A stretch of 64,000 nucleotides of DNA from Candidatus Colwellbacteria bacterium. Lineage in GTDB: Bacteria > Patescibacteriota > Minisyncoccia > UBA6257 > Colwellbacteraceae. The position numbers were made by a program, and so were the translations under genes. Positions 3,066 through 62,645 of this stretch are shown in pieces (positions within the stretch are counted from its first letter, which is position 1; every line of letters starts with the position of its first letter). The DNA is taken from NCBI GenBank assembly GCA_028710275.1, contig JAQTUL010000002.1, forward strand, positions 12,855 to 76,854. Direction: 5' to 3'. The notes beneath the pieces are model-generated. The model made no database searches, was not told where the DNA came from, and saw only the letters and a list, made by a program, of their open reading frames with translations.

Positions 3066-3146
3066 ATTGAGATTAGATACAGAACTTTTCTATTAAACGG
3101 GTTAATAAAAATTGTTCTCAGTTCTAATTATCAAACTTATTTTATC

Positions 3147-11659: not shown

Positions 11660-11686
11660 TTATAAAAATTGATATCTGTAATCATT

Positions 11687-11726
11687 GAATATCGTATGCC
11701 ATTATGTATCATGGCATACGATATTC
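11687..11726. terminator. hairpin GAATATCGTATGCCAT-tatgtatc-ATGGCATACGATATTC after the Rad50-like gene stop; both candidate ATGs of the next gene lie inside it
   Basis: Perfect 16 bp arms. Confidence 0.45.
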
Positions 11727-13294
11727 AATCTGATAAAATATTAATTGAAAATAAATGTGTTGTGTGTGGAAAGAAATGTAGTTTTAATTATAAAACTCTA
11801 GATTATGGTGTAAGATGTAGGATTCATAAATTAGAAGAAATGGTTAATATATCGAGCCCAGAATATTGTGAAAAACGATTCGTTAAAACGATAGACAACT
11901 TAAAAGGAAAAGTTGTAGGAAAATATACTGGAGATGGAAATCCGGTTGAATGCGTATGTGAAAAAGGTCATGTGTGTCATCCTAGACCAACTCATATAAA
12001 ACAGGGTAGAGGAATGTGTTTTGCATGTTCAGGAAAAGATTCTAAAACCGCTGAAAATAATTTTTACAAAAACATAATTTTGTTGGGTGGTAAAGTTCTC
12101 GGCGAATATACTGGCAATGATAAACCAGTCGAATGTCTATGCTCTAATGGTCATATTTGCAATCCAAGACCGGGAAGTATACAACAGGGGCAAGGAATGT
12201 GTATTATATGCTCGGGATTAGATTCTAAAACCGCTGAAAATAATTTTTACAAAAACATAATTTTGTTGGGCGGTAAAGTTCTGGGAGAATATAATGGTAA
12301 TGATAAACCAGTCGAATGTCTATGTTCTAATGGTCATATTTGTAATCCAAGACCAGGAAGTATACAACAAGGAAAAGGAATGTGTATTATATGCTCGGGA
12401 TTAGATCCTAAAACGGCCGAATATAATTTTTACAAAAATGTAACTTTATTGGGTGGTAAAGTTATAGGTAAATATGTGAATAGCACCACACAAGTAGAAT
12501 GTATTTGTTGTAATAACCATCAGTGTTATTCAAATCCCTCTTCATTACAACAAGGTAAAGGAATGTGCATAATTTGTGCGAAACAGGATCCTAAAACAGC
12601 AGAAGATAATTTTCACAAATATGTGTCTACTTTGGACGGTAAAGTTATAGGTAAATATGTGAATAGCTACACACAAGTAGAATGTATTTGTTCAAACGGG
12701 CATACATGCAACCCGTATCCATGTAATATTTCAAAAGGGTTAAATATATGTAAAATATGTGCAGGACAAGATCTTCAAACATCAACTGATAAATTCATTA
12801 AAAATATACACAAACTAGGAGGAAAAGTTATCGGTACATATATAAATAATCGCATGCGTGTAGAATGTATATGTATTGCTAATCATAAATGTTGGCCGAT
12901 ACCTAGCAGTATTCAACAGGGTCAAGGAATGTGCCCAAAATGTGCTAAAACATCTTTCTCCAAAATTTCATTCGAGTTTTTGGACGGTATCTGTCTCTCG
13001 CAAAAAATTTCTCTACAGACCGCCAAATCAGAGGAAGGAGAATTCAAGATTCCGGACACCAAATACAAGGTTGATGGCTATCACAAAGAGACCAATACTG
13101 TATACGAGTTTCATGGATGTTACTGGCATGGATGTCCAATGTGTTTTGATCCTGAGAAGATGAATGATATATCAAACAAAACGTTCGGTAAGCTACACGA
13201 TAAGACATTACATCGTGAAGAGTTGATAAGGTCAAAAGGATATAATCTTGTAGTAATGTGGGAGTGTGACTGGAAAGAAAAACTTGTGATTTAA
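11696..13294 (+). CDS. zinc-ribbon repeat protein fused to Vsr-like (very-short-patch-repair type) PD-(D/E)xK endonuclease
   Basis: The track start 11669 is TTG and the first ATGs are at 11696 and 11711. There are seven 61 aa repeats (NPVECxCxxGHxCxPRPxxIQQGxGMCxxCSG). The C-terminus YKVDGYHKETNTVYEFHGCYWHGCPMC matches the Vsr GCFWHG block. Paralog of 3147-4280. Confidence 0.7.
   Translation: MPLCIMAYDIQSDKILIENKCVVCGKKCSFNYKTLDYGVRCRIHKLEEMVNISSPEYCEKRFVKTIDNLKGKVVGKYTGDGNPVECVCEKGHVCHPRPTHIKQGRGMCFACSGKDSKTAENNFYKNIILLGGKVLGEYTGNDKPVECLCSNGHICNPRPGSIQQGQGMCIICSGLDSKTAENNFYKNIILLGGKVLGEYNGNDKPVECLCSNGHICNPRPGSIQQGKGMCIICSGLDPKTAEYNFYKNVTLLGGKVIGKYVNSTTQVECICCNNHQCYSNPSSLQQGKGMCIICAKQDPKTAEDNFHKYVSTLDGKVIGKYVNSYTQVECICSNGHTCNPYPCNISKGLNICKICAGQDLQTSTDKFIKNIHKLGGKVIGTYINNRMRVECICIANHKCWPIPSSIQQGQGMCPKCAKTSFSKISFEFLDGICLSQKISLQTAKSEEGEFKIPDTKYKVDGYHKETNTVYEFHGCYWHGCPMCFDPEKMNDISNKTFGKLHDKTLHREELIRSKGYNLVVMWECDWKEKLVI
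12041..12600 (+). repeat. 183 bp (61 codon) in-frame tandem repeats inside CDS 11696-13294; first three copies over 90% identical
   Basis: tctaaaaccgctgaaaataatttttacaaaaacataattttgttggg... recurs at 12041, 12224 and 12407, then in more diverged copies. Confidence 0.85.
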
Positions 13295-15371: not shown

Positions 15372-15506
15372 TATTATGACAGTTTATGATAGATTTATTA
15401 TCATAAACCATAATAAACGACCATAAAACTTATGTTTATGATAGATTTATGTCCATAAACTTTTTCGGAGTTTCCGAAAAATAGGATTGCAGTGATCTCC
15501 GAAAGT

Positions 15507-15665
15507 CATAATTTAGAATTAAAGTTGAAAGGAGGATGTTTTCGGATTATGACTTTCGGAGATAAAAGGCTATCCCGTTTCTAAAACTATTTGAAATTGA
15601 AAAAAGTATATCAAACTCTCTCAATATTTGTGAGAGAGGCGACCTCTCCGCCGAAAAACTTTCAG
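15507..15665. repeat. conserved about 130 bp intergenic element with nested inverted repeats, copy A (copy B at 41638-41795)
   Basis: gttttcggattatgactttcggag...tttctaaaactatttgaaattgaaaaaagtatatcaaactctctcaatatttgtgagagaggcgacctctccRccgaaaaactttc is near-identical at both loci. Internal hairpins CTCCGAAAGTCATAAT/ATTATGACTTTCGGAG and CTCTCTCA/TGAGAGAG. Both copies lie 190-290 bp upstream of the paralogous minus-strand genes. Confidence 0.85.
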
Positions 15666-15749
15666 ATAGCGGAAATGGTTGTGTATCTCTGAACTCCGAA
15701 AAACTTTGGTGATAACTTTCGTTTACAAGTTATCACCAAAGGTCGATAG

Positions 15750-15808
15750 ATTGTTGAGCTAGATAAACAGGTTAAATAGTTGATGGTATAATTATCTAGC
15801 TCAACAAT
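15750..15808. promoter_or_regulatory. long hairpin ATTGTTGAGCTAGATAA-n25-TTATCTAGCTCAACAAT ending on the ATG of 15807
   Basis: Perfect 17 bp arms. Lies in the divergent region after the conserved 130 bp element. Confidence 0.4.
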
Positions 15809-18614: not shown

Positions 18615-20717
18615 ATGGACTACAAATATCAATCGTATTGTTGGTTCAATAATCTCGATTCGGAATCCAATGAAGAATCTCCTTTATATCAGAGGAAAAA
18701 ATGGTATCTTTTTGAACTCTATATGTGTTACAAAACATGTGTAATACCCTGGCATTTTATTTCCATTGATACTAAGGAAAAATGGAACGTTCACGTAAAA
18801 GACCACGGTATCGATGGGATTACAGAAGATGGAACTATTTCTGTTCAAGCCAAGTATAGAAACAACACAAGTATAACATACACAGAGTTGTGTACATTTT
18901 TTGGGTTAAGTTCTATATTAGATTGTAAACAGAAAATACTGGGGTGTTTGCAGACATCGAAGATATCAAAACAAAATATACAGTACATGGACCGATTTGG
19001 TATGACCAACCAAATCGTCGATGATGGCTGGGAAGATGAAATGAAGAAGTTGAGTGACCAATATGTTATCCCGGAAATAGTTGAGACCACCATCAAATTA
19101 CGTCCTTATCAAATCGAGGCATTGAATGTATGTAAACAAGAGAAGAAATCTATAAAAATTTCTTTTCCATGTGGAGGAGGAAAATCGATAGTGATTATAG
19201 AAGTAGGATTGTGGTGTAAAGAGAACAACCGAAAATGTGTGATATTTGTTCCTGGATTAACGTTGATGAATCAGTTGTATAAAATGTTTAAAACGTATAG
19301 TAAAAAGAAACTAAATATTTTGCGAATCGGTACAGGATTTAATGAAATGGAGAATGAGTATGATATTATTATTTGTGTATACAACAGTTGGAAAAAGGTT
19401 GATGAAATATGTGAGATAAGTGAATCTTGTTGTATCGTTGACGAAGGTCATCATCTAGAAAAGTTTGAAGATGAGAGTGAGGAAGAGAAAAAAGAATCTG
19501 ATGATGATTTTATTACGTTTGAAGATGAAGGAGAATCTGAAAAAGGACATCTTGAAGGAATATCTAGTCTCTCGTTCCAAAAAGAAATACACTTTAGCGC
19601 TACATTTGGTAACTCTAACATCGATTATACATATACATTAGAAGATGCTATTGAACAAGGATATCTATGCGATTACGATATTATTGTACCGGTTGTAGAT
19701 AAAGAGATATCAGTTGACATTCCTAAAGTTCTTGTTGATCTTCTTTATAAAAGACAAGATCTAACTAAAATTTTAGCATACTGTAATAGCAGAGATAGTG
19801 GGAAAAAGTTTACTCAACTTTTAAATGACAATGGAATAAAATCTAAATTTGTAGATGGAACTATGAACATAAAGAAGAGACAAGAGATTATCAATTCGTT
19901 TACAAAAGGAGATATCAGAGTAATTGTGTCTGTTTATGTATTTGGAGAAGGACTAGATATTCCATGCGCTGATACATGTTTATTTGTTGAACCCAGACAT
20001 AGTCGTATAAATATTATCCAATGTATTGGACGAATTATGAGATTACATAAAAATAAAACTATAGGACATGTAATTTTACCAACAGATAGAGAAGACACTT
20101 GTGTAAAATTCTTTAAGATATTAAGAGACTGGGATTCGAGAGTGAAAAGTTCTTTGAAAGAAAAGAGATTAGGACGAATCACATTCGAGAACATAAAAGA
20201 GATTGAAATTGAAACCGGAGACGTCGATTATTACATTGATATTTACAATAGATTTGGAGAGATAAAAGGATGGGATGATAAATACTCGATCTATAGACGA
20301 GCTGTAGTAGAGGTAGGAATTAAATTCGTTTACTCTACCGTATTTGAAGGTGAAAAAATTGGTTCATGGGAAAGTGACCAAAGAAAGATCTACAAAAAAG
20401 AAAAGTTATCTGATGAAAGAAAAGAAAAGTTGGATAAAATTCCCCGATGGAAAGCGTGGAGAGAAAAAGAGGATTTATCTGAGAAGAAAGAGAAGAAAAA
20501 TCTTACTTGGGATGATAAATACGAGATTTATTCACGAGCTGTAGTAGAGGTAGGAAATAAATTCGATCGATCTACCGTATTTGAAGGTGAAAAAATTGGG
20601 AATTGGGAATCTAAACAAAGAATGAACTACAAAACCGAAAAATTGTCCGATGAAAGAAAAGAAAAGTTAGATAAAATTTCCCGATGGAGAGAGTGGAGAG
20701 AAAAGAGTGGGTGTTAA
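18615..20717 (+). CDS. restriction-res-like N-domain plus SF2 DEAD/DEAH helicase with two C-terminal helicase-associated (HA) domains
   Basis: N-terminus res/Mrr-like (ISIDTKEKWNVHVKDHGIDGITEDGTISVQAKYR). Motif I FPCGGGKS, motif II IVDEGHH. Two 79 aa repeats (YSIYRRAVVEVG.KF..STVFEGEKIG.WES.QR..YK.EKLSDERKEKLDKI.RW) match the HA domain pattern. Confidence 0.7.
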   Translation: MDYKYQSYCWFNNLDSESNEESPLYQRKKWYLFELYMCYKTCVIPWHFISIDTKEKWNVHVKDHGIDGITEDGTISVQAKYRNNTSITYTELCTFFGLSSILDCKQKILGCLQTSKISKQNIQYMDRFGMTNQIVDDGWEDEMKKLSDQYVIPEIVETTIKLRPYQIEALNVCKQEKKSIKISFPCGGGKSIVIIEVGLWCKENNRKCVIFVPGLTLMNQLYKMFKTYSKKKLNILRIGTGFNEMENEYDIIICVYNSWKKVDEICEISESCCIVDEGHHLEKFEDESEEEKKESDDDFITFEDEGESEKGHLEGISSLSFQKEIHFSATFGNSNIDYTYTLEDAIEQGYLCDYDIIVPVVDKEISVDIPKVLVDLLYKRQDLTKILAYCNSRDSGKKFTQLLNDNGIKSKFVDGTMNIKKRQEIINSFTKGDIRVIVSVYVFGEGLDIPCADTCLFVEPRHSRINIIQCIGRIMRLHKNKTIGHVILPTDREDTCVKFFKILRDWDSRVKSSLKEKRLGRITFENIKEIEIETGDVDYYIDIYNRFGEIKGWDDKYSIYRRAVVEVGIKFVYSTVFEGEKIGSWESDQRKIYKKEKLSDERKEKLDKIPRWKAWREKEDLSEKKEKKNLTWDDKYEIYSRAVVEVGNKFDRSTVFEGEKIGNWESKQRMNYKTEKLSDERKEKLDKISRWREWREKSGC
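20271..20700 (+). repeat. 237 bp in-frame tandem duplication encoding the two HA domains of helicase 18615-20717
   Basis: tgggatgataaatac...gctgtagtagaggtaggaa.taaattcg...ctaccgtatttgaaggtgaaaaaattgg at 20271 and 20508. Confidence 0.8.
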
Positions 20718-27486: not shown

Positions 27487-27681
27487 ATGATTACTAATCC
27501 CTTTCAGAAGATGATAGATCTCGAATCTCAAATATTAAAAGAGACTGCGATATTAGAGAAGATACGAGAGAAATTTTCTACATCCGTCCGTCATGTGACT
27601 CTTAACAAATATATCTATCTCTCATTATTCACCGGGTGCGTCTTTCTTTCATCTCTACTTCTTGTTGTTGTTCTCGTTTGA
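27487..27681 (+). CDS. possible small tail-anchored membrane protein
   Basis: 64 aa with a C-terminal hydrophobic helix. It lies in a repeat-rich spacer, so it is uncertain. Confidence 0.25.
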   Translation: MITNPFQKMIDLESQILKETAILEKIREKFSTSVRHVTLNKYIYLSLFTGCVFLSSLLLVVVLV

Positions 27682-27808
27682 AAAGTTGGAACAAGTGGGA
27701 TCGTATCCCACCGGAGCTTTTGAAAAGTTGGAACAAGTGGGATCGTATCCCACCGGAGCTTTTGAAAAGTTGGAACAAGTGAGGTCGTATCCCACCGGAG
27801 CTTTTGAA
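27676..27808. repeat. 3x tandem array of 42 bp unit TTTTGAAAAGTTGGAACAAGTGGGATCGTATCCCACCGGAGC (dispersed repeat family, + orientation)
   Basis: Three head-to-tail copies with one variant (gtgaggtcg). The unit carries the imperfect palindrome GTGGGATCGTATCCCAC. Minus-strand ORF 27615-27812 is a reading-frame artefact of this array. Confidence 0.9.
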
Positions 27809-27979
27809 ACAATTGATTATTGAAAAATTTGAGAATTGTAGATCAACATTATGGACACTCTCTTCTCAAATTTTTCAATAATTCCATCTAGATTGATAAC
27901 TCACTATTTAGTAAGTGATGATATCTCAAAAGTGTGCTTAAAAGTTGAAGCACATATCTCTGTGGCTCAGAGAGAGATC

Positions 27980-28040
27980 TTTGAAAAGTTGGAACAAGTG
28001 GTATACAATCCCACCGGAGCTTTTGAAAAGTTGGAACCGC
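27980..28040. repeat. dispersed repeat copy (+ orientation) inside small ORF 27851-28147
   Basis: ctttgaaaagttggaacaagtggtatacaatcccaccggagcttttgaaaagttggaacc. Confidence 0.85.
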
Positions 28041-41956: not shown

Positions 41957-44900
41957 ATGGCTGCTGAGAAATCGATCAGTTCTTTATCAAACTCCTTCAA
42001 GGAGATAAATCTCGAGGGTAACAACGACAGTGTGATACAATCTAAATTTTTAGATCTGGTTTTTAACAAAAAGAGAAATATTTTGTTATCATCCCCTGGT
42101 GGATGTGGTAAATCGTGGCTTATTATTAACATCATAAAAAAGGAAGCTGAACAAAGAGGTCTATCAATATCATTGACGTCAACCACAGGAGTCTCTGCGT
42201 TATCAATTGGTGGAACTACAATTAATAGATGGGGGAGTATCAAATTGGGAAAGGAATCGATTATGACTATTTGTACAAGAATAAAGAATAATAAGGAGAC
42301 ATTAAAAAGATGGAATGAATGTAAAATTTTAGTTATAGATGAAATATCTATGATGGGAGTAAAAACATTTGAATTATTAGATAATGTGGGTCGAAATATA
42401 TGTGAATCAAATTTACCTTTCGGTGGCAAACAATTAATATTATCAGGTGATTTTTTACAACTACCTCCCATCGGAGATTCCTTTATTTTTAAATCTGAGA
42501 TATGGGATACTTTTAATTTCAGATTTTTCAGATTAACGACCCCGAAGCGATATCCTGATATCGATCATTTTAATATGCTCATGAATATGAGATTGGGAAA
42601 TACTTCTAAAGATGATACTAAAAAAATGTATGGTAGAGTTGACGCATATATCGATTATATTCGTAAAGGATTAGAAAAGAAGGAAAAAATTAAACCAACA
42701 AGAATTTATTCCCTTAAAAAAGATGTTGAAACATTTAACCTAGACGAACTCTCTAAATTGGAAGGTAAAACTATCGTCTATAATTCTATTGACAAGTTCT
42801 CCAAAAAATTATCTGAAAAGGAAAAATTAATCGACAAGAATGAGCGAAAAAAGGATAATATATCAGGAAAGGATGTTATGGACTGTACAGAATTTTTAGA
42901 TACAGTTGTGAATAGGCAGATACTTTTAAAACCGGGAGCACAAATAATGTTGACATATAATTTAGCCATAGATATTGGGTTAGTTAATGGGTCTAGAGGT
43001 GTAGTATTATCTTGTGATCAAGACAGTATCAATGTATTATTTAAAAATGGAATCACAACCAGAATAGGGTATAATAAATACGAATTTGACGATGGTAAGA
43101 TTCTCATGGTAAGATATCAACTTCCAATAATTCTGGCGTGGGCAACGTCGATACATAAATGTGTCGATGAAAATACATTAATAAGCACAGAGAATGGGTT
43201 GATAAGAATCAAAGATATATCAACTCATATGATGGGGAAAAATACAAATATGATTCATCCTGATAATTCTATATTACATATATCAGAAAAAATATACGGT
43301 CGCAATGGAATTAATAAAACATCTGAAATATATAAAGGGTGTGTGGAAAAATCTTTAAAAATAACAACCAAATTAGGATATAGTATTGAGGGGTCACATA
43401 AACATCCTATATTAGTTTACGATAATGGAAAAGAGGTATGGAAAACTCTTCCATTTATCAACAAGGGAGATTATATTGTATTCCGAACAGGATTGTTCTG
43501 TGGTCGAAAAGATAATATTACAACTGATATGTTTACTATTGAGCAATATAGAGAAGGAAGTAAAAAGATATACTCTATTCCTCAAACAATAGATGAAGAT
43601 ATATGTTATGTTATCGGATTATTAGTAGGGGACGGAACATATTGTTATTCTACAAACGGAGATTATAAAATAGGATATGTAACATTAGATAACGAACTAA
43701 TCAATAAATTTAAATCTGTTATGGATACCAAATTCAAAACCGATGTTAGAATTTTCGAAGATAATGGCGCCCAACGCTGTATTGTAAGTTCCAAAATGAT
43801 TAGAAACTTTTTTGAGATATTCGGTCTTTCGTATACGAAAAGAACCGAGAAAACGGTTCCATGGTGTATTCTTGAGAATACAGTGGAATGCCAAAGAAAA
43901 TTCATAAAGGGATTATTCGATACGGACGGGGGTATAAATAATTCGTGTATACATTTTACAAATACGTCAGAAAAAGTTATTGATATTACTCAAATTCTTC
44001 TACTCAACAATGGTATTATATCTTCTAAAAGAGTTCTCAGAGAAGCAACCGATAAATGGAGTAAAGTATTTAGAATTCAGATATGTGGAATAAATGCTCG
44101 AAAATATATGTCTACAATTGGATTTTTCTGTTTACGTAAACAGAAACAAGGTATAAAACAGTACGGTAAAGACCCATCGATACAATTGATCCCAAAAACT
44201 AATATATGCAGTATTCCCGATTCTTATACTATTACGAAAACTATTAAAGATCAGCTTACAACATCAAAAAGAAATGATTCATCATTTCATAGTTTCATCT
44301 ATAAACGTGTAGGAAGAGGTGATCTCAATTCGACTATATGTTACGATCAGTTACCATATTTAATTCAAGAGTGTAAAAATAGAAATATTAAATTAGACCC
44401 TAAAATCCAAGAGTGGGTAAATAATGGAATATTTTTTGATAGAGTCGATTCAATTGAAGAAGGTTTGTGTCAGATGTATGATATCGCAGTTCCGGAAGAT
44501 CATACATTTATAGCGAACGGGATTGTAAATCATAACTGTCAAGGAGCGACCCTTGATTATGCTATCATGGATCTTGGATCATCTATCTTCGCTCCGGGAA
44601 TGGCGTATGTCGCCCTTTCTCGTGTCAGAACTCTTGATGGTCTACTATTGAGTAGCTTTGTCCCAAAGAAGATCATCGCGGATCCAGAGGCTCTAGAATT
44701 TGAGAGAATGATTGAAGCTCAAGAAAAGGATGAGGATATCGATTACGAGATCGAGAAAGGAGGTGGAATGCCTCAAGAGGAGGGGCGCCCGAATAAACAA
44801 GTGAAACAACAAGAGATTACTGTTCTTCGAGGAACAATGTGTGGTGAGACCATGATGGTTGATAAGATTCCAGGAGTAGACAAACACATTGTCGCATTCA

Positions 44901-45112
44901 TTATGGCAGATTGTCCAGAGATCTACGAGATTATGGATCCTGATATGTGGAAGAAACTCAAGGGATTAGAAGCACCATTGAAAGTTGATAATGAGACACT
45001 GTATAGTAAGCTCTTAGAACTTCTGGAGTTGGAGAGCGGAGAAACTGGAGACGAAGATGATAACGAACCTGGTGGATTGATAGACTGTGAGGAGGATGTG
45101 TTAGAGTTGTAG
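41957..45112 (+). CDS. PIF1-like SF1 DNA helicase interrupted by an intein
   Basis: Walker A SSPGGCGKSW, LVIDEISMMG, LILSGDFLQLPPI. The motif ATSIHK is split from CQGATLDYAIMDLG...MAYVALSRVRTLDGLLL by a 459 aa Hint+LAGLIDADG insert. Confidence 0.88.
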   Translation: MAAEKSISSLSNSFKEINLEGNNDSVIQSKFLDLVFNKKRNILLSSPGGCGKSWLIINIIKKEAEQRGLSISLTSTTGVSALSIGGTTINRWGSIKLGKESIMTICTRIKNNKETLKRWNECKILVIDEISMMGVKTFELLDNVGRNICESNLPFGGKQLILSGDFLQLPPIGDSFIFKSEIWDTFNFRFFRLTTPKRYPDIDHFNMLMNMRLGNTSKDDTKKMYGRVDAYIDYIRKGLEKKEKIKPTRIYSLKKDVETFNLDELSKLEGKTIVYNSIDKFSKKLSEKEKLIDKNERKKDNISGKDVMDCTEFLDTVVNRQILLKPGAQIMLTYNLAIDIGLVNGSRGVVLSCDQDSINVLFKNGITTRIGYNKYEFDDGKILMVRYQLPIILAWATSIHKCVDENTLISTENGLIRIKDISTHMMGKNTNMIHPDNSILHISEKIYGRNGINKTSEIYKGCVEKSLKITTKLGYSIEGSHKHPILVYDNGKEVWKTLPFINKGDYIVFRTGLFCGRKDNITTDMFTIEQYREGSKKIYSIPQTIDEDICYVIGLLVGDGTYCYSTNGDYKIGYVTLDNELINKFKSVMDTKFKTDVRIFEDNGAQRCIVSSKMIRNFFEIFGLSYTKRTEKTVPWCILENTVECQRKFIKGLFDTDGGINNSCIHFTNTSEKVIDITQILLLNNGIISSKRVLREATDKWSKVFRIQICGINARKYMSTIGFFCLRKQKQGIKQYGKDPSIQLIPKTNICSIPDSYTITKTIKDQLTTSKRNDSSFHSFIYKRVGRGDLNSTICYDQLPYLIQECKNRNIKLDPKIQEWVNNGIFFDRVDSIEEGLCQMYDIAVPEDHTFIANGIVNHNCQGATLDYAIMDLGSSIFAPGMAYVALSRVRTLDGLLLSSFVPKKIIADPEALEFERMIEAQEKDEDIDYEIEKGGGMPQEEGRPNKQVKQQEITVLRGTMCGETMMVDKIPGVDKHIVAFIMADCPEIYEIMDPDMWKKLKGLEAPLKVDNETLYSKLLELLELESGETGDEDDNEPGGLIDCEEDVLEL
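43160..44536 (+). mobile_element. intein with LAGLIDADG homing endonuclease domain, inserted in PIF1 helicase motif (IHK|C...HN|CQG)
   Basis: Starts with Cys (CVDENTLI) at codon 402 and ends with IVNHN followed by a +1 Cys. Two LAGLIDADG blocks (VIGLLVGDGTY and IKGLFDTDGGIN). Removing it restores the ATSIHK-CQGATLD helicase motif. Confidence 0.8.
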
Positions 45113-53418: not shown

Positions 53419-56400
53419 ATGTCGATCGAATTTGAAAACGATTCTGAAGATGATATCGAATTGGATGTTGCAGTTACCGGTGCAAGAGTAGGAGATGTGA
53501 TTATCGGTCAGCAGAAGTGTACGATGAAAGCGATGCTTCGTGTGTATACATCTCCTATTTTCCCGATGAAGAAGTATCTGGATGAATTACGAGATGATGA
53601 TGAAAAGTGGGAGAGATTTCTCGCGAAGCTCTCGTCACTCTCATTCTTCGCAAACATGACTCGGGATGAGCGTGAAGAGTGGATGGATGAGAATGAGACA
53701 ACTGTAGAGTTTATTGGGGACGACCGTGAGGGAGGCGAGAAGAGTGGAAAAAGAAAAGAAACGCATATCGAGATTCTGGATGTAGGAACTTCGACATTGA
53801 CCTCTCAAGTGGAGTCAGAGGATCTGGAGGTACTCATGGAGGGTAAGGAAGAGGGATTCTATTCGGTTGAGGAGATTGAATCTCGATTCCCGAGAAAGCC
53901 GGGAAGTAATGCGCGAAAACATACTCTCTTCTTTATGAAACAGTTTTGGGTTGTGGTGACAGATTACAAGATCGTTACGTCGTTCGATGGAGTTGTATTC
54001 GATATCGAAAATGGAGAGATCAAGTCGAACTGTGAAACAGAGGATGGAAAGGAGTTGATTGTTATTGACGGAATCACAAAGCAGTACACGTTCGGAAAGA
54101 AAGATGAATGGGTGAAAAAGTCAGAACAAAAACTCGCGTTTCTCGTTTCGAAAGAGAGATTCGATCTCTCAAAGATAGATGAGATTGTAAAGGAGACATA
54201 TAAGGAGTTGTCAGACGTCGATGGCGATATGAATGATACGATCCGGAAAATTAGAACAGACTTGAGAGAATACACAGCCGGGTCGTTCAAATCTCTTATG
54301 CAGAAGATCATTCGATTCGGTCCGGATAAGGTATCACTTCTGGATGGAGAGATTGTGGATGGAGGAATAGTCATTCTCGTTGTTGTTGCGATGCTCGCAC
54401 AGAATCCAGGATCATTCGTTCCTGATATTCAGAGATATGTTACAGGACTTGAGTCTGTAGCAAAACGATTGGGGATCATCTGTGGATTCGAAGACTCGTA
54501 TACACCTCCGGAACGAGTGAATGAATTGGTGTCGTTGTTCTCTGGCGCACTTCTTGCTCAGAGAGTAAGATCATGGAAACCGAATAGACAAACTCTAAAA
54601 CTCTGGATGACAACTGCGTATAAATCGCTCAATGAGCGGAGAGCTATCGATTACGAGAAGGAGTCATCTAATCTCTCAATTACAGACTGGTGGACTCTAT
54701 GTCATAAGAAGGGATTGGATATGAAACCGTACGCTATCTCGGAGAAGTTGAGTCCGATAAAAACGTGTAGCGCGATTCTAGATACTCTTAGGTCGTTCGA
54801 GGGAGATATTGGAATGGCTCGACATATTGCATCAGTTTATCCGAAGTGTGAACTTATAGAATGTGATAGAACACATGAGGTTGTGATGCCTCTGTGTCAC
54901 GGAACAGATCAACATTGGGCTGCAGGGTTCATCTACTTCTTCACTCCGAAAACTATTCTTCAGAATAAAGGAGAATCCTCACCGTTCGATAAGATATTCA
55001 CTCGTGTGTTTCAGGAGGTGACCGGATTCAATCCTCGAAGAGATGAGATTGGAGAAGACTTTGAAGATGATGAATTTGTGAAGGAGACGCGGAGATCGCA
55101 GATGTTGTATCTAGTAGCAAAACAGAACAAACAGACAAAGAGAAAAATCCTCAAACGAGAACATTACAAGAGTAGCTATCAGTTGAACGATTCATGGTTG
55201 GCTGGAATGGTTAGTGCTATAGAGATTCCAGGAAGTCCGGCAACTATTGTGACTCTTCGTCCAGAGAATATCTATCAGCTTATCGCAATCAGAAAGCCGT
55301 CTCGTAATATGGCAGAGAACATCACTCCCGAAAGAGAGGAGTACTCGAAGAAGACTGCAAAGGAGATGTTGAAGAATGGAATAAAACTAAAGGGAACACA
55401 TCCTCCATCGGAATTTTTTAAAGGTGCATCAGTCAAACTAGTTGATGATGAGTATATTATCATTTCAGCAGATGGTATTTCGATGACATGGGAGGATGCA
55501 AGAGATATCGATATCTCTCTTCCATATCACAATGCTGTAGATAAGAATATAGAGAATTCTATTTCTCAGTGGGGAGAAGGTATTGAGATCAATGCGTTTG
55601 AGAAACTTGATAAGCTCATTGCAAAAACCAACACAAAGGTAATGTACCGTGTCCTTTCGTATATCGCAAACTATAAGAAGGAGTTTGAGATGAATAGAGT
55701 TAGTCGAGATGGAAACGGAACTTATCAGAGTGTCAGTCTTAATGATGTTCGTGCTTATCAGTTCATTCTCACTCTGAGTCAACTCTTTCCTGCAGCATTA
55801 CGACCGGTTGAAAAATCGCCTCAGAAATTCCTAGTTCCAGTTGGACCATTACTGTGGAACATTGTTACAAAGATCAAGGGATTCTTGTGTAAGCCGGAGG
55901 ACGATGATGGATGGGATGAAGTAGAGATTAAGGATTCCTTAGAGAGAGTTGAGTGGACTCATCAGAAGGAGACTACAGAGGAGATGATCAGGAACTTCAA
56001 GTCGGGAACGAAAGGAAACTTCTTATGGCTGCGCGTCGGGCTTGGGAAGTGCCTCCACCCAGATACTAAAGTTTTGTTATGGGATGGGTCCATGAAACGC
56101 GCGGAAGATGTACAAGTGGGTGACAGACTTATAGGGGACGACAATACGTATAGAAATGTACTGACTACATGTACCGGTGAAGAGGAAATGTTTGAAATTT
56201 CACAAATCAAAGGTGATTCTTATAAAGTAAACAGATCTCATATTCTGTCTCTGAAGTTTTCAGGACATAAAGGATATTATTGGAGTGAGTCTTATCATAG
56301 ATATTCTGTCACTTGGTTGGATAAAGAGGAGGTGAAACGAAAAACTAAAATCTTTACGGTTAGCCAGGTATATAAAACGAAAGAGATTGCTTATGATACA

Positions 56401-58389
56401 ATGATGCAATTTCGATCTACAATTCCAGACGATGATATTATCGATATCTCTGTAAACGATTATCTCTCTCTTCCTCAAAATTTTAAGAATGAATTGAAAG
56501 GTTTTAAGGTAGGGGTTGATTTCCCTTCACAAATTGTTTTTATGGATCCTTATTTATTGGGAGTATGGCTTGGTGATGGATACTCAAATGGATCCGGATT
56601 TACTAACATAGATGAAGATTGTATTAATTCTTTCGTGAAAGAAATAGAATCTATGGGGTGTCATATCTATAGAAAAAAATCAAAGGGAGAAGATACAATT
56701 TCCTATGCTGTACGAGGTATTTATGAAAATAAAAAGAGAAAGAGAAACCATTTTCTGGATATTATAAGATACTATGGAATGTATAAAAATAAACATATCC
56801 CTAAGGACTTTTTAATTAATGATAGAGAAATTAGATTGCAGGTTTTGGCTGGATTGATAGATACTGATGGATATTATAACGATGGATGTTATGAGATAAT
56901 ACAAAAAAGAAAAGAGTTATCGGATAACATTTTGTACTTGGTTAGATCATTAGGATTTAACGCTACACAAAAAGAGGTTCAAAAAACATGTACAAATTCT
57001 ATACATGGAAGAATAACAGGTACTTATCATAGGTGTATATTCAGTGGAGAAGGAATAGATCTTATTCCTTGTAAAATTGAAAGGAAAAGAGCACCTGAAA
57101 GAATGCAGGTGAAAGATGCATTGAGTACAGGAGTTACAGTTAAGAGTATAGGGAATGGTAAATATTGTGGATTTACTATCGACGGAAATAGTAGATTTCT
57201 TCTTGGAGATTTCACGGTGACTCATAATACCTTAATCGTAATGAACTTTCTCTCGTGGTTGAAAAGTATGAAAAAACTCTCAAAGTATATTCTCTACACA
57301 CTCCCACCGTCCGCGATTGAGAGTGTTGTACATGAGATTCAGGCGTTTGGATTAGAGATCAACTATATCATTCCGCTGAAGAGTATCAAAGGTAAGAAGA
57401 TTCCGAAAGGAGTAACGGTTACTCAGGAATGTGTTCTCGTTCCGTATGCGGTGAATATCATTGCACACGACCATTTGCGGCGATGTAGCGACGAACTTCT
57501 CAGTTATGCAAGCGAGTGTACATTCCTGGTCGATGAGGTTCATAAGGGATTGAATGAGACAAAGAGAACTAGTACCCTTCTCGATATTGCTCGTCTTTCA
57601 AGAATATTTGTAGCCTTTACAGGAACACCAGTGATCGACAACAAGATCTATAAACTCATCTGGTGGTTGGAACAGATTGTTGAGTTTGAGGTCAATCTCG
57701 GAAACTTCTGGGTGAGTGCAAATTCGATGGTTGCGAGAAAGATCTCGACAGGCGTGAGAGTGATTCGAAAGGAGGTGGTAGCTAAATTCAAGGATGATGA
57801 ACTTTCCGAATACAAAAAACTTGTTCCAGTTGCAATGGGAGGAGAGAATAAGTATGCGTCGAATACAGACTTCAACGATGCGTACAAACTCTGTTGTAAC
57901 GTGACAGCGAGTAGACGAATGATTGAGGAGACAATGGCGGCGTTGGGTGAAGATAAAGGAGTCATGTTGGTCGCGCAGAATAGATCTCATCAAGATCGTT
58001 TGAAAGATATGCTTGTTGATGAGGGAGTGAAGGAGAAGGATATCTTTATCTTGACTGGAAACAATAGTATATTCTTGACGGATGAGGCTGTGAAGAAGAA
58101 GATCATTCACGATTACAAAGTTGTTATCGTTCCGATGAACAAACCTGAAGGATACACATTGACAAGACTAACAGTTATGGTAACGTGTGTCTATCCGTCT
58201 AACGAAGCAACTCGTGAACAGATCGAGGGTCGTATCAATCGTATTAGTCAGGCTGCGGAAGAGATTGAAATTATCGTGGTACACTGCGGAATTCTCACTT
58301 ATATTCTAAAGAATCATAATCAAGCAAAGAGTCTGAGTATCGCGTTGAGTGATATGGCAAAGAAACTGGAGGGTGTGAAGATTGCGTAG
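53419..58389 (+). CDS. D6/D11-like (SNF2/DExH) SF2 helicase interrupted by an intein
   Basis: The 1656 aa ORF has a Walker A split as RVGLGK|[intein]|TLIVMNF. Downstream are FLVDEVHKGLN (DExH) and QIEGRINRISQ (motif VI). The host protein is about 1263 aa without the insert. Confidence 0.75.
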   Translation: MSIEFENDSEDDIELDVAVTGARVGDVIIGQQKCTMKAMLRVYTSPIFPMKKYLDELRDDDEKWERFLAKLSSLSFFANMTRDEREEWMDENETTVEFIGDDREGGEKSGKRKETHIEILDVGTSTLTSQVESEDLEVLMEGKEEGFYSVEEIESRFPRKPGSNARKHTLFFMKQFWVVVTDYKIVTSFDGVVFDIENGEIKSNCETEDGKELIVIDGITKQYTFGKKDEWVKKSEQKLAFLVSKERFDLSKIDEIVKETYKELSDVDGDMNDTIRKIRTDLREYTAGSFKSLMQKIIRFGPDKVSLLDGEIVDGGIVILVVVAMLAQNPGSFVPDIQRYVTGLESVAKRLGIICGFEDSYTPPERVNELVSLFSGALLAQRVRSWKPNRQTLKLWMTTAYKSLNERRAIDYEKESSNLSITDWWTLCHKKGLDMKPYAISEKLSPIKTCSAILDTLRSFEGDIGMARHIASVYPKCELIECDRTHEVVMPLCHGTDQHWAAGFIYFFTPKTILQNKGESSPFDKIFTRVFQEVTGFNPRRDEIGEDFEDDEFVKETRRSQMLYLVAKQNKQTKRKILKREHYKSSYQLNDSWLAGMVSAIEIPGSPATIVTLRPENIYQLIAIRKPSRNMAENITPEREEYSKKTAKEMLKNGIKLKGTHPPSEFFKGASVKLVDDEYIIISADGISMTWEDARDIDISLPYHNAVDKNIENSISQWGEGIEINAFEKLDKLIAKTNTKVMYRVLSYIANYKKEFEMNRVSRDGNGTYQSVSLNDVRAYQFILTLSQLFPAALRPVEKSPQKFLVPVGPLLWNIVTKIKGFLCKPEDDDGWDEVEIKDSLERVEWTHQKETTEEMIRNFKSGTKGNFLWLRVGLGKCLHPDTKVLLWDGSMKRAEDVQVGDRLIGDDNTYRNVLTTCTGEEEMFEISQIKGDSYKVNRSHILSLKFSGHKGYYWSESYHRYSVTWLDKEEVKRKTKIFTVSQVYKTKEIAYDTMMQFRSTIPDDDIIDISVNDYLSLPQNFKNELKGFKVGVDFPSQIVFMDPYLLGVWLGDGYSNGSGFTNIDEDCINSFVKEIESMGCHIYRKKSKGEDTISYAVRGIYENKKRKRNHFLDIIRYYGMYKNKHIPKDFLINDREIRLQVLAGLIDTDGYYNDGCYEIIQKRKELSDNILYLVRSLGFNATQKEVQKTCTNSIHGRITGTYHRCIFSGEGIDLIPCKIERKRAPERMQVKDALSTGVTVKSIGNGKYCGFTIDGNSRFLLGDFTVTHNTLIVMNFLSWLKSMKKLSKYILYTLPPSAIESVVHEIQAFGLEINYIIPLKSIKGKKIPKGVTVTQECVLVPYAVNIIAHDHLRRCSDELLSYASECTFLVDEVHKGLNETKRTSTLLDIARLSRIFVAFTGTPVIDNKIYKLIWWLEQIVEFEVNLGNFWVSANSMVARKISTGVRVIRKEVVAKFKDDELSEYKKLVPVAMGGENKYASNTDFNDAYKLCCNVTASRRMIEETMAALGEDKGVMLVAQNRSHQDRLKDMLVDEGVKEKDIFILTGNNSIFLTDEAVKKKIIHDYKVVIVPMNKPEGYTLTRLTVMVTCVYPSNEATREQIEGRINRISQAAEEIEIIVVHCGILTYILKNHNQAKSLSIALSDMAKKLEGVKIA
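56050..57228 (+). mobile_element. intein with LAGLIDADG homing endonuclease domain inserted in helicase P-loop (GLGK|C...HN|T)
   Basis: Begins with CLHPDTKVLLWDG (Hint block A) and ends with FTVTHN followed by a +1 Thr. LAGLIDADG blocks LLGVWLGDGYSNG and LAGLIDTDGYYNDG. 393 aa. Confidence 0.8.
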
Positions 58390-59021: not shown

Positions 59022-60041
59022 ATGAAAATTGAGATAATACAACAAAAATCTTTACCTGTTGTATTACCTACACCTCACCAACCAATCATGTCGACAACGT
59101 GCAATATTTCCTTTAACTTTGGAACCATGAGTACAAAGAATCTCGAGGAGATCAGAGCGAATGTGAATCGAATTCTCGCGGCTCGTCGTCCTCTATCAAG
59201 TGTTTCCTACTTGAACCGACTTATGACCAAGGATCATATGAAGTACGAATATAAGTTTGTTCGAGAGACCAATAACGACGGTCTTCGTTATTGGAATTGT
59301 TTTTTGACTTATCGAAAGGCCGGTGACGATACTCTTCATACGTGGGGTTGTGATATTAATAAGAAGAAAGCAAAGCAGGTTGCAGCATCGGAAATGAGAC
59401 TATTCTTTGATGAAGAGTACTCGTATAACCCCCGAGATTATGATAAGCAGGAAATTGAAGCAAAATTCATTGACCCAATTGAAGATGATGACGAATACGA
59501 GGACGATTTTTATTACTCCGACGAAGACAAAGAGTCTCCATATTCATTGAGTGAGGATGAACGTTACATGTCACAGAAATATACTCCTATTCCGGTTGAG
59601 AGTGACTACGACAGTGACTACAATGGAAGTGATCTGGATGAAACTGATCGATCACCTCGTGTAGTCTATATTCATGGATTGAAGGATTTCGAGGACAATG
59701 ACGACGACTCAACATCCAATCCCGAATGGATGTCTGAGTGGAAGAATATGAATGATGGAGAGAAGAAGGAGTTTCTGGATAAGGAGATCGATGAATATAC
59801 CAATGAGACGATCGAACGAGGAAAATATCTCTCTAATCTTAAGGAATGTGTCGAAACTCTTCAAAACCTTCCATGGAAGAAAGAGATTCTGAAGACTATT
59901 TCAGAATCGAATGAGTCTACAGTGAGTGGTGATTGGGAGAAGTATGTTGTTTCTCTTCCACTACATACTCTCGATTTGAATACTTCTGACCAGAACGTGA
60001 TTATTGATATCAACGACGATGAATGGGAGATGATGATCTAA
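59022..60041 (+). CDS. hypothetical acidic protein
   Basis: The track start 58989 is GTG overlapping the upstream stop. The first ATG is at 59022 (MKIEIIQQ). Confidence 0.5.
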   Translation: MKIEIIQQKSLPVVLPTPHQPIMSTTCNISFNFGTMSTKNLEEIRANVNRILAARRPLSSVSYLNRLMTKDHMKYEYKFVRETNNDGLRYWNCFLTYRKAGDDTLHTWGCDINKKKAKQVAASEMRLFFDEEYSYNPRDYDKQEIEAKFIDPIEDDDEYEDDFYYSDEDKESPYSLSEDERYMSQKYTPIPVESDYDSDYNGSDLDETDRSPRVVYIHGLKDFEDNDDDSTSNPEWMSEWKNMNDGEKKEFLDKEIDEYTNETIERGKYLSNLKECVETLQNLPWKKEILKTISESNESTVSGDWEKYVVSLPLHTLDLNTSDQNVIIDINDDEWEMMI

Positions 60042-60062
60042 ATTACACGAGTAACTGAATAG

Positions 60063-60086
60063 ATTCAAAAGTTATAACTTTTGAAT
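60063..60086. terminator. hairpin ATTCAAAAGTT-at-AACTTTTGAAT after the 59022-60041 stop
   Basis: Perfect 11 bp arms. Confidence 0.45.
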
Positions 60087-60120
60087 TTAACCTTAAAGAC
60101 GTATAATCTTATAGTATCTA

Positions 60121-60762
60121 GTGACAATGTCCACTCAACCTTCAGAAATCTCTATCACCCGAGCGCTCGATGAACTTGTTCTCATCGACAAGCGTATTCA
60201 GAAGAAGGTGACCGAGGTTAACTTCATTACCTCTATCTCTAAGAAGAATAAGAGCTTTATCAATCCTGAACAGTTCGAACAGAACGCCAAGTCGGATTGG
60301 CAGTAGATTCGTGATCTGATTTCTCTTCGTCATCGAATGAAGGGTGCGATTGTTAAGAGTAATGCAGAGACGCTGGTGAAGGTTGGTGACGAGACTCTCA
60401 GTGTCGCAGAGGTGATCGAGCGCAAGAAGTCACTCTCTATTCACACCAATCTTCTCATGAAGCTGAAGACGCAACGAGAGAGTATTCTGCGTACATCGGA
60501 GTATGCAAACGCGCAGATGGAGCCCGAGCTTCAGAAGCTGATTGAGATTCATTTTGGTAAGTCTAGTAACGGAAAGACTAACCCTGATGACATTGAGGCG
60601 ATCAGTCGACCGTTCCGTGAGAACAACTGTACAAAGGTTATCGACCCTATTGGAATCGACAGTAAGATCAAGGAGTTGGAGACCTATGTCGAGAACTTTG
60701 AGCGTGAAGCAAAGTTTGTTCTCTCAGAGTCGAACGCATTGACTAAGATCAAGCTGAATTAA
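60121..60762 (+). pseudogene. two same-frame ORFs (60121-60306 and 60337-60762) separated by a single in-frame TAG; possible disrupted or readthrough gene
   Basis: Both ORFs are in frame 1. The translation across the stop reads ...NAKSDWQ*IRDLISLRHRMKGAIVKS... with protein-like sequence on both sides. Confidence 0.3.
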
Positions 60763-60786
60763 AAGTACCACAAATAAAGAAGTTTA

Positions 60787-61107
60787 GCCCCCTTCTTGCA
60801 CGAAGTTAGACACGCACCACCTGATCTACCTTTCTTGGGATGTAGGACAACACCTCAAAACAACCAATTATGGAAATTGTCAAAACTTAACTATCAGATC
60901 TCTGCGCCACGGTATAACGTGTGTGTGGTTTTCAACTATTAAGAATCATCTCTCAACTCTCACTAATCAAATTTTAACTCTCAACAAGAATGTGTAGTCG
61001 CATTCGATCAACAAACATTAAATCCGTGATCATGGTCGTCTCTGAAAAGAGATAAGGATATTAGATTAATCCTGTATGACACCACACGGCTGTGTAAGAA
61101 GGGGGCC
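60787..61107. ncRNA. candidate structured non-coding region: 467 bp ORF-free spacer with a 15 bp long-range stem (GCCCCCTTCTTGCAC / GTGTAAGAAGGGGGC, one G-U)
   Basis: No ORF of 60 aa or more on either strand across 60770-61236 in an otherwise gene-saturated window. The stem arms lie 290 nt apart. Confidence 0.25.
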
Positions 61108-61236
61108 CTTCAATTAACAAATTACTGAGTAATCTGTTAATATTTTGAAAGTTGGAACGAGAGCGTTTGATAATTGACGATAAAAATGATTGTTTGTCTG
61201 GATAGATAGTGAGTTTTACTTACTTCGTACTTCAAA

Positions 61237-61995
61237 ATGAGTAAACTCATTCCCGAACGAGGATCATTCTCAAAAGCTCCGGTGGGATCGTATCCCACTT
61301 GTTCCAACTTTTCAAAAGCTCCGGTGGGATACGATCACACTTGCCTAAGTGGTTCCAACTTTTCACGTCCGGAATTCTATCCAAGTGCTCGCGCCGGGAT
61401 GGGAACCCAACAGGGATTTCTCTATTCTAGTCCAGGTGTAGATATCATCCATAATGATGATCTGGAAGAGATTGTCATCCATACACCTCCTATGAAATCT
61501 CCACCACAAGTTCGTCAGATAATCAACGATGATTCGTACTGTTCCTCAAAAGTTATGATCGGAAATGTAAAGTTCCCTCTATCTATTTTTATTATTTTAG
61601 CAACTATCTTGACAGCATTGTCTATATGTGCTATTATTATTCACGATAGATATAGCAATACCACATGTATTGGATCATACAGTGGGATTGTATTTGGTTA
61701 TGTAAAATGGTTGTATATTTATGCATGGACAAATATTGGACTTATCGGGTGTATGTGTTGGTTGTTCATTATCTCTCGGTTCTCATCAATCAAAGTAGAT
61801 TCTCTAAAACTTAATATCCTGAGACTGGGATATCTTTTTCAGTTTGCATGGTATATCGTCGGAGCTGTTCTCTACTTTATTGAGATTAATGAATCATGCT
61901 CGTCGGGTGATATTCTCTACGATTTCGGTTTGGCTCTATTTATTTGTCAAACAGTCGTGTGGTTCACTATTTTATTTCAGGACCGAACAACGTGA
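61237..61995 (+). CDS. multi-pass membrane protein; N-terminal 45 aa encoded by dispersed-repeat copies
   Basis: Four C-terminal hydrophobic helices. The N-terminus FSKAPVGSYPTCSNFSKAPVGYDHTC is the reverse-complement reading of two repeat units. The true start may be a downstream ATG. Confidence 0.5.
   Translation: MSKLIPERGSFSKAPVGSYPTCSNFSKAPVGYDHTCLSGSNFSRPEFYPSARAGMGTQQGFLYSSPGVDIIHNDDLEEIVIHTPPMKSPPQVRQIINDDSYCSSKVMIGNVKFPLSIFIILATILTALSICAIIIHDRYSNTTCIGSYSGIVFGYVKWLYIYAWTNIGLIGCMCWLFIISRFSSIKVDSLKLNILRLGYLFQFAWYIVGAVLYFIEINESCSSGDILYDFGLALFICQTVVWFTILFQDRTT
61270..61372. repeat. two dispersed repeat copies (- orientation) at the 5' end of ORF 61237-61995
   Basis: ctcaaaagctccggtgggatcgtatcccacttgttccaacttttcaaaagctccggtgggatacgatcacacttgcctaagtggttccaacttttcacg. 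Confidence 0.85.
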
Positions 61996-62020
61996 AAGCC
62001 GCTCCCAACGATATCGAAGA

Positions 62021-62046
62021 ATAAATGTGACTTTAAAATATAGAGA
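62021..62046. terminator. hairpin CTTTAAAATA-tagaga-TATTTTAAAG after the 61237-61995 stop
   Basis: Perfect 10 bp arms. Confidence 0.45.
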
Positions 62047-62075
62047 TATTTTAAAGTAAAGTAACCTAACAAGCG

Positions 62076-62645
62076 ATGAGTTCTCCCTCCCTTAAAACTT
62101 ACGTCATCAATATCATCGGCGGACCGGGAGTAGGAAAATCCACTCTGTCAGCTCTTATTTATGCTCAGCTTAAACTGAACAAGTATGTCACTGAATATGT
62201 GCAGGAGTATGCGAAACAGCTCGTCTGGACAAAGGATTTTTCTAAACTGAACAATCAGTATTACGTAACAGATCACCAATATTCTCTATTCAAACGAATG
62301 GAAGGTCTTGTAGATTTTATTGTAACCGATGGACCTCTGTGTCATGGACTATACTACAATATTTACAATCCGGACAACACATCAAACGTCGAGAAGACGG
62401 AAGAGAAGATTCTTGAATGCCATCGAGAATTCAGAAACATAAATATCGTTCTTAAACGAGGACGATTTGAATATGAAACTCAGGGACGTCTTCAGGATAA
62501 GAATGAAGCGATAGATATTGATGGTCTTATTAAAGAACAGTTGGTTGAACACGAAATCCCGTTCAAGGAGTTTGTCGCAAGTCCTGATAGGAAGACTATC
62601 GAAGCTATCATTCAGTACATTGAAACTAACATAAATCTACTTTAG
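62076..62645 (+). CDS. P-loop nucleoside/nucleotide kinase-like protein
   Basis: N-terminus YVINIIGGPGVGKSTLSALI (Walker A in a kinase-like context). 189 aa. Confidence 0.45.
   Translation: MSSPSLKTYVINIIGGPGVGKSTLSALIYAQLKLNKYVTEYVQEYAKQLVWTKDFSKLNNQYYVTDHQYSLFKRMEGLVDFIVTDGPLCHGLYYNIYNPDNTSNVEKTEEKILECHREFRNINIVLKRGRFEYETQGRLQDKNEAIDIDGLIKEQLVEHEIPFKEFVASPDRKTIEAIIQYIETNINLL

Follow-up and report, generated by a model that had tools for sequence, protein, structure and literature searches.

Genomic locus and first appraisal

The region considered here lies in a stretch of 64,000 nucleotides (the window) from contig JAQTUL010000002.1, deposited under the name of a Candidatus Colwellbacteria bacterium. 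It holds a gene of the T5.085 / phrog_1491 family, followed by an interval poor in open reading frames (ORFs), an AT-rich palindrome and a gene for a 252-aa protein. Comparative analysis shows that the plus strand at 60787-61106 encodes a structured RNA of a widespread family whose members measure about 270-400 nt. Across phages, a prophage and giant viruses, this RNA is conserved, strand-specific and obligately linked to one protein family, that of the upstream gene (hereafter the partner gene). The window copy is a full member of the family. It adjoins the gene on the same strand and has the closing helix P1 (…CG / UG…), a 3′ domain with helix Pa, and a series of 7-nt repeats (heptads). The anatomy of the locus is given in Table 1.

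Table 1. Features of the RNA locus and its partner gene, in window coordinates
Feature	Position	Strand	Remarks
Upstream partner gene, T5.085 / phrog_1491 family	60127-60762	+	about 210 aa, DIP1984-like helical fold
Whole structured RNA, 320 nt	60787-61106	+	bounded by helix P1; starts 24 nt past the stop of the upstream gene
P1, 5′ strand GCCCCCUUCUUGCACG	60787-60802	+	ends in the family-conserved CG
Junction J1 AAGUUAGAC and variable 5′ hairpins	60803-60879	+	family consensus of J1 AAAACNNUAAACUUA; hairpins include CAAUUAUGGAAAUUG at 60865-60879
Heptad array A	60880-60900	+	three in-phase UYAR units (UCAAAAC UUAACUA UCAGAUC)
Hairpin GCGCCACGGUAUAACGUGUGUGUGG	60904-60928	+	separates the two heptad arrays; also predicted by folding
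Heptad array B	60931-60985	+	eight in-phase 7-nt units (UCAA/UUAA/UCAU/UCAC), at 60932, 60939, 60953, 60967, 60974 and 60981, with two further, degenerate units in register
Variable hairpin (GAAUG…CAUUC)	60988-61005	+	
Conserved 3′ domain	61016-61090	+	CAUUAAAUCC, helix Pa, proposed helix Pb, two hairpins, GGC
Helix Pa, CCGUG/CACGG	61024-61028 with 61085-61089	+	
Proposed helix Pb	61033-61037 with 61078-84	+	manual comparison only
Two 3′-domain hairpins	61039-61052 and 61056-61072	+	
P1, 3′ strand UGUGUAAGAAGGGGGC	61091-61106	+	
AT-rich palindrome TTAACAAATTACTGAGTAATCTGTTAA	61114-61140	+	8 nt past P1

The original prediction had described the interval as an ORF-free island enclosed by a 15-bp long-range stem, and had proposed a non-coding RNA (ncRNA), a replication origin or a regulatory locus. 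The stem, GCCCCCTTCTTGCAC / GTGTAAGAAGGGGGC, exists and is complementary at 14 of 15 positions, the single exception being a G·U pair on the plus strand. Its 5′ arm lies at 60787-60801, and its 3′ arm lies one base to the left of the position first given, at 61092-61106 instead of 61093-61107. With an adjacent G·U pair, the helix extends to 16 bp (60787-60802 / 61091-61106). As described, neither strand of 60763-61236 contains an ORF of at least 60 aa. The interval is not the only such stretch above 400 bp, since a second one (435 bp) occupies 15372-15806. The latter lies between divergently oriented genes and carries short tandem repeats at 15374-15427.

Two further features had been assigned to the right end of the element. 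The dispersed-repeat core GTTCCAACTTT is indeed enriched in the window, with 15 matches against 1.8 expected and one copy at 61148-61158. The motif CTTCGTACTT shows no enrichment (6 matches against 4.1 expected, a count reached in 24 of 100 shuffles) and is not significant. Both fall outside the RNA, and the repeat core is a lineage-specific insertion. Taken alone, the stem is only moderately unusual: when the 467 bp were dinucleotide-shuffled 200 times, 3 of the shuffles contained an inverted repeat of the same or greater length. Folding z-scores hardly differ between the strands (-3.2 and -3.7). The case that the stem exceeds chance comes instead from comparative data, presented below.

Linkage to one protein family and distribution

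All close homologues of the partner gene that were examined have, on their 3′ side, ORF-poor DNA with the core AAAUCC…GGCUG (L136-L138 included). A covariance model (CM R1) was built from the 3′ domain alone. Among 87 homologue-carrying loci, about 72 gave one same-strand match with it, 220-420 nt past the stop codon, and there were essentially no matches elsewhere or on the other strand. The matched loci include 19 not used in model building, as well as phages T5 and BF23, IMG/VR phages and giant viruses. A prophage of Clostridium tagluense scored 52.6 bits. In the window, which was part of the seed alignment, the model matches once within 64 kb, at 61016-61099 (39 bits, E 2e-8). GC-rich versions of the RNA occur at L136 4000-4385 and L138 3705-4085, about 200 nt past longer homologues of the partner gene (268-282 aa). 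The contigs L136 and L138 also carry PAP2, DAGK and papain-like genes.

A converse test started from the RNA. A pattern scan of IMG/VR gave 64 matches, and in 29 of these the gene sits on the same strand, 230-360 nt upstream. The other 35 comprise about 30 at chance level by covariance model, one strong match at a contig edge, one 26-bit match inside tail genes and three at 19 bits. P1 begins 0-70 nt past the stop codon in most loci, and farther on in a few.

Homologous RNAs are found in hundreds of genomes. RNA and protein occur together in viruses of bacteria and in viruses of eukaryotes (giant viruses). In T5 and BF23, the equivalent region of 360-440 nt is unannotated; the T5 copy lies at about 43142-43504 of NC_005859, downstream of T5.085. 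Nearly all of 444 T5-like records conserve the T5/BF23-type region at 89% or more, and almost all of 60 rows sampled from these records have no feature annotated under it.

The downstream 252-aa gene was considered as a partner and rejected. Its homologues in L023, L098, L099, L129, L133 and L134 have short upstream spacers without the RNA, which assigns the RNA to the upstream gene. L133 has, in order, a dsRBD gene, a palindrome near-identical to 61114-61140, a promoter motif and the 252-aa gene, and lacks the cassette. Compared with this order, the window has acquired the upstream gene and the RNA together as one block.

Structure, covariation and conservation

The family displays a defined architecture. 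P1 (13-24 bp, free in sequence) is followed by a conserved A-rich junction, variable hairpins, 3-14 heptads, and a 3′ domain closed by Pa (AAAUCC-NNN … NNN-GGC). P1 and Pa were aligned for 37 sequences (692 cells), anchored on the junctions of CG with AAA and of GGC with UG. Pairing is present in 98.8% of the cells, compared with 62% in shuffled controls and 38-43% when the partner strand is slid. Double changes occur at 13 of 14 P1 pairs, and the innermost P1 pair is G·U in all 37 sequences. The sequence of P1 differs in nearly every lineage and its complementarity is kept. In a separate set of 17 loci, detected through the 3′-domain model without use of P1, the helix was found again in 16. 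There, a helix of 12-20 bp joins the sequence after GGC (or AGC, GGCA) to a segment 0-70 nt past the stop, followed by AAA.

Covariation in relatives had been named as a check on the island, and the helices do covary across dozens of lineages. The ncRNA option is strongly supported, with the stem as the helix that closes a conserved, strand-specific RNA. That the selected structure is a plus-strand RNA follows from its abundant G·U pairs and its fixed orientation; on the other strand, these pairs would be A·C mismatches. RNAalifold recovered P1 and Pa as the only family-wide helices, because the other hairpins vary.

The heptad array is the second hallmark of the family. UYAR motifs spaced by 7, 14, 21 and 28 nt occur 139, 116, 79 and 50 times, respectively, against about 9 expected. 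The unit has the consensus A-R-W-U-Y-A-A and recurs 3-14 times in an RNA (11 times in the window copy). By eye, the heptad resembles a T-loop or a Leu anticodon loop (U-Y-A-A-A), a likeness on which no claim is made.

The window copy has close relatives at the DNA level only in Logan assemblies, namely L135, identical to the window, and L025, a 3.2-kb contig colinear with window positions 60000-62600. A blastn search of the window region against phage records gave no match. Exact-pattern scans with GTAAGAAGGGGGCC in IMG/VR and with GATCATGGTCGTCTCTGA in JGI metagenomes and GTDB genomes returned chance matches only, as checked by local blastn. A protein-based locus search of IMG/VR with the truncated 141-aa ORF of the window found nothing; the search succeeded when an alignment of distant homologues served as the query.

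Between the window and L025, the stop-to-palindrome region differs at a single position (0.8%) in its 3′ 132 nt and at 6.3% in its 5′ 222 nt. The flanking genes are far more divergent, with 21.7% of third codon positions changed in the upstream gene and an identity of 78.5% in the downstream gene. These rates point to strong purifying selection on the window RNA. Moreover, by manual comparison, the changes within helices keep pairing. In P1, C60799 is U in L025, turning a C-G pair into U·G. The hairpin at 60865-60879 reads CAAUUGUGGCAAUUG in L025, with two changes and one G-C pair gained. The hairpin at 60904-60928 carries three substitutions and remains paired if plus-strand G·U is allowed. 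At the place of the variable hairpin 60988-61005, L025 has a different, longer one (CCACACGC…GCGUGUGG). Two segments of the window, 61141-61180 and 61280-61355, are window-specific insertions relative to L025. Both are copies of a dispersed repeat and lie outside the RNA.

The partner protein

The partner gene of the window is split by an in-frame TAG at 60304-60306 (TCG in L025) and is annotated as two ORFs of 59 and 141 aa. L025 carries an intact gene of 213 aa, the product of which matches phrog_1491. Past the TAG, substitutions between the two copies still fall mostly at third codon positions, and hence either the TAG is recent or the C-terminal part is still translated.

The protein family is large and uniform in length (about 205-215 aa), with 3,553 representatives (clusters at 50% identity) among 1.84 billion proteins. 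Phage records yielded 737 tblastn matches, in T5-like, Otagovirus, Brevibacillus, Bacillus, Vibrio and Lactococcus phages, and 401 IMG/VR stretches also matched. The AlphaFold2 model (pLDDT, predicted local distance difference test, 92.6) consists of long helices and short strands. Its top Foldseek match in the PDB is weak (3kdq; probability 0.90, E 0.21, template-modelling score 0.37-0.48). The matched structure is an uncharacterised protein of Corynebacterium diphtheriae, DIP1984.

Membership in the DIP1984 or 'septicolysin' profiles was not supported, as P0130, P0068 and P0020 gave no Pfam or NCBIfam match at E ≤1. A sequence-profile search of the PDB gave no match either, and all Foldseek matches among viral structures (BFVD) are uncharacterised phage proteins. 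Accordingly, neither Pfam, NCBIfam and PDB profiles nor Foldseek against PDB and BFVD suggested a function for the partner protein.

Transcription unit and tRNA context

The motif AAAAWTGAWT occurs at 13 sites in the window (8883…63662), all on the plus strand, against 4.3 expected. It sits 40-65 nt upstream of many plus-strand ORFs and is common to L023, L025, L098, L099, L129, L133 and L134. It is probably the early-promoter element of this clade, and resembles the mimivirid early promoter. The motif is absent between 60042 and 61181.

AT-rich palindromes follow three consecutive genes or units (60060-60089, 61114-61140 and 62030-62057), and one stands at the equivalent site of L133. Under the 'hairpin rule' of mimivirus, an AT-rich palindrome lies shortly past the end of a transcription unit. 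The palindrome at 61114-61140 is likely the transcript-end hairpin of a unit comprising gene and RNA. Co-transcription is suggested because the promoter motif is missing from 60042-61181 and the palindrome lies just past P1.

In phages, the RNA is frequently followed by transfer RNA (tRNA) genes. A tRNA gene starts 4-92 nt past P1 in 10 of the 39 phage loci scanned, and one lies within 300 nt of P1 in 15 of 39, often as the first of an array. In the IMG/VR phage L186, a tRNA-Ser(UGA) gene at 3209-3283 is nested in the variable 5′ domain of the RNA (3138-3493).

Relation to known RNAs

At gathering threshold, Rfam 15 gave no match for the window, BF23 or L136-L139. The models searched include RNase P RNA, transfer-messenger RNA (tmRNA), signal recognition particle (SRP) RNA, 6S RNA, group I and II introns, ROOL and GOLLD. 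Permissive E-values, applied also to BF23, yielded noise, the best being U4 on the wrong strand at 17 bits against a threshold of 46. ARAGORN detected no tRNA or tmRNA gene in the window.

Several assignments were rejected on additional grounds. RNase P RNA, tmRNA and SRP RNA have neither a model match nor their conserved motifs here. A group I intron is excluded by the intergenic position and the lack of a model match. For a TnpB or Fanzor ωRNA, the neighbouring protein is too small and all-helical. A U-rich clamp resembling the expression and nuclear retention element (ENE) was seen by eye in phage versions only, and the window copy lacks it. A small ORF is precluded by the UAA-rich heptads, which place stop codons in all frames.

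ROOL and GOLLD offer the nearest comparison in kind, being large structured ncRNAs of phages and prophages. They often adjoin tRNA genes, in agreement with a preprint (bioRxiv 10.1101/2024.12.08.627333). The present RNA is likewise phage-borne and often heads tRNA arrays. However, it is smaller, has a heptad array and an obligate link to a protein gene, reaches giant viruses, and has no Rfam match. Other stable phage RNAs tied to tRNA clusters are 'RNAX' of T5 and the species 1 and 2 RNAs of T4. The RefSeq record of T5 annotates rnaX ('stable RNA with unknown functions') at NC_005859 40848-41566, about 1.6 kb downstream of the T5.085-linked RNA, which is a different and unannotated locus.

The repeats call to mind three other systems. 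CsrB/RsmZ and CrcZ are RNAs of a few hundred nucleotides in which many copies of a short motif can bind several copies of a protein, an analogy for the heptads. Their motif is GGA in hairpin loops or an A-rich CA element, in contrast to A-R-W-U-Y-A-A. These sponges are not known to have strict 7-nt phasing, a closing helix or an adjoining partner gene, and they share no sequence or Rfam similarity with the present RNA. In the HutP RNA of Bacillus subtilis, a trinucleotide recurring with a 7-nt period (UAG-N4) is read by a ring-shaped oligomer, a precedent for a 7-nt phase that reflects the subunit spacing of a protein oligomer. There, the 5′ leader that controls antitermination carries the repeats as two groups of three, whereas here 3-14 repeats lie in a closed ncRNA 3′ of a gene, and the partner protein has an unrelated helical fold. 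Type III toxin-antitoxin RNAs (ToxI), found on phages and plasmids, are repetitive RNAs encoded beside one protein gene and acting with its product. Their repeats measure about 34-36 nt, lie upstream of the toxin gene and are cut by the toxin. In the present family, the repeats are 7 nt, downstream and inside a larger fold, and the protein is DIP1984-like, not a ToxN-type endoribonuclease.

No description of the RNA or of T5.085 was found in the openly accessible literature that was searched, and the RNA family is apparently undescribed.

Functional interpretation and alternatives

On a slight balance of probability, the best explanation of the data as a whole is an RNA of this family that is co-transcribed with the partner gene, forms a ribonucleoprotein (RNP) with the co-encoded protein, and has a role in translation or tRNA metabolism. 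The RNA would have no promoter of its own and would be transcribed as the 3′ part of the gene transcript, ending in the window at the palindrome 61114-61140. In phages, the transcript would continue into the tRNA array, and tRNA processing would release the RNA. P1 may then seal and protect both ends, giving a stable product. An RNP with the co-encoded protein is our leading guess for how it acts. Within such a particle, the heptad array could serve as a multivalent single-stranded binding platform for the protein, and the 3′ junction domain as the site of specificity or nucleation. Because the RNA heads phage tRNA operons, it may take part in translation or tRNA metabolism during infection.

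A bolder version is put forward tentatively, at rather less than even confidence. It envisages a viral RNP system shared by tailed phages and giant viruses, in which the UYAA array is read by a protein oligomer or titrates a universal translation or tRNA factor. Such a system would act in the takeover of translation and tRNA or in the evasion of RNA-directed host defences.

Several observations weigh against the RNP account. A discrete, stable RNA product is a prediction, and genetic linkage is what suggests its interaction with the protein. Profile and fold searches found no recognizable RNA-binding domain in the latter. In the window, the partner gene carries a nonsense codon and the RNA is intact, which fits a protein-independent role as well. 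The predicted unpaired probability of the heptads is in slight excess over the rest of the RNA (0.47 versus 0.39). ARAGORN found no tRNA genes in the giant-virus window, and the tRNA link is therefore not universal. The GC-rich RNAs of L136 and L138 escape CM R1, as do about a dozen other loci. Lastly, the 37 aligned sequences were chosen partly by complementarity, an ascertainment bias that the 17-locus check answers in part.

An unlikely alternative is a cis-acting element of the 3′ untranslated region (UTR), with no trans function, that would stabilize the mRNA against 3′ exonucleases, set its 3′ end, or mediate translational feedback. The short distance from the stop codon (0-70 nt in most loci) leaves no room for a promoter, and the window RNA sits between stop codon and transcript-end palindrome. 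Both facts agree with a 3′ UTR element, as does the strict linkage to one gene family. Nonetheless, some 320 nt with an 11-unit periodic array and a conserved multi-helix junction far exceed the needs of known 3′ stabilizers, and the window RNA is nearly invariant although its gene is broken by a stop codon. The tRNAs directly after the RNA in phages likewise point to a separate, processed product.

It is also doubtful that the RNA is purely a decoy. On this hypothesis, the UYAA heptads would titrate a host RNA-binding protein, a ribonuclease or a tRNA-directed defence nuclease, and the neighbouring protein would be a helper or mechanistically unrelated. Multiple short periodic motifs in an RNA of about 300 nt are a sponge hallmark, as in CsrB/RsmZ and CrcZ. 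Moreover, the RNA heads phage tRNA arrays, and the family is found in large virulent phages with many tRNAs. Yet the same RNA occurs in bacterial and eukaryotic viruses, so that the target would have to be universal. Its strict co-inheritance with one viral protein is also left unexplained by a purely host-directed decoy.

An element acting as DNA is very improbable, whether a miniature transposon with 15-bp terminal inverted repeats or an origin or partition site with 7-bp iterons. Inverted termini around about 290 bp, direct 7-bp repeats, and the presence or absence of the gene-plus-RNA block between related giant-virus contigs would suit it. However, the element is single-copy, with the arm sequence found only at the two arms in 64 kb, and on inspection its flanks (AAGTTTA on the left, CCTTCAA on the right) show no target-site duplication. 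The supposed terminal repeats change in nearly every lineage yet stay complementary, and they include G·U pairs, one of them invariant, that would be mismatched in DNA or on the other strand. The origin option raised in the original prediction fares no better, as cumulative GC skew rises monotonically through 60-62 kb with no inflection at 60-61 kb, the helices are rich in G·U, and orientation and position beside one gene are fixed. A chance inverted repeat in ordinary intergenic DNA, in spite of the shuffling result and the about equal folding of both strands noted above, is rejected in view of conservation far above that of neighbouring synonymous sites, homologous RNAs in hundreds of genomes, and covarying helices.

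If the RNP account is correct, a conserved RNA of about 360 nt has been overlooked in the classic model phage T5, and it would be among very few structured ncRNAs common to different viral realms. The RNA gives a first experimental handle on the partner protein family, and T5 genetics together with T5.085 biochemistry make its role directly testable. A 7-nt periodic array is unusual for an RNA, and a protein would be expected to recognize it in a specific way. Furthermore, the family model enables annotation of the RNA in thousands of viral genomes.

Origin of the window and additional features

The proteins of the window match those deposited as the 'Candidatus Colwellbacteria' metagenome-assembled genome (MAG), assigned to a bacterium of the candidate phyla radiation (CPR). 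The gene content includes eukaryote-type elements, namely TRAF and RING fingers, synaptobrevin and an OGFr domain, and its AAA_28 gene has its relatives on giant-virus MAG contigs. The window is probably a giant-virus contig mis-binned as a CPR bacterium, because of these domains and relatives, its inteins, the promoter-like motif and the palindromes after genes.

Two genes contain inteins. The first (41957-45112) encodes a Pif1-type helicase with a LAGLIDADG intein; the second (53419-58389) is a 1656-aa ORF in which Pfam matches only the Hint and homing-endonuclease parts. Tandem repeats inside ORFs comprise 183-nt units at 11995-12693, within ORF 11669-13294, and 237-nt units at 20271-20704, spanning helicase-associated (HA) domains of ORF 18615-20717.

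The dispersed repeat mentioned above is 42 nt long (TTCAAAAGCTCCGGTGGGATACGATCCCACTTGTTCCAACTT) and has an internal palindrome. Copies occur at 27677-27809, 27985-28040, 61141-61180 and 61267-61365, with tandem arrays near 27.7-28.0 kb and a partial inverted copy between palindrome and promoter motif. The repeat is also inserted in frame at the N-terminus of ORF 61237-61995, where it adds about 25 aa that none of the 8 homologues has. The independent assembly L135 breaks inside the repeat, at 61299. Taken together, the 42-nt element looks like an actively spreading small repeat.

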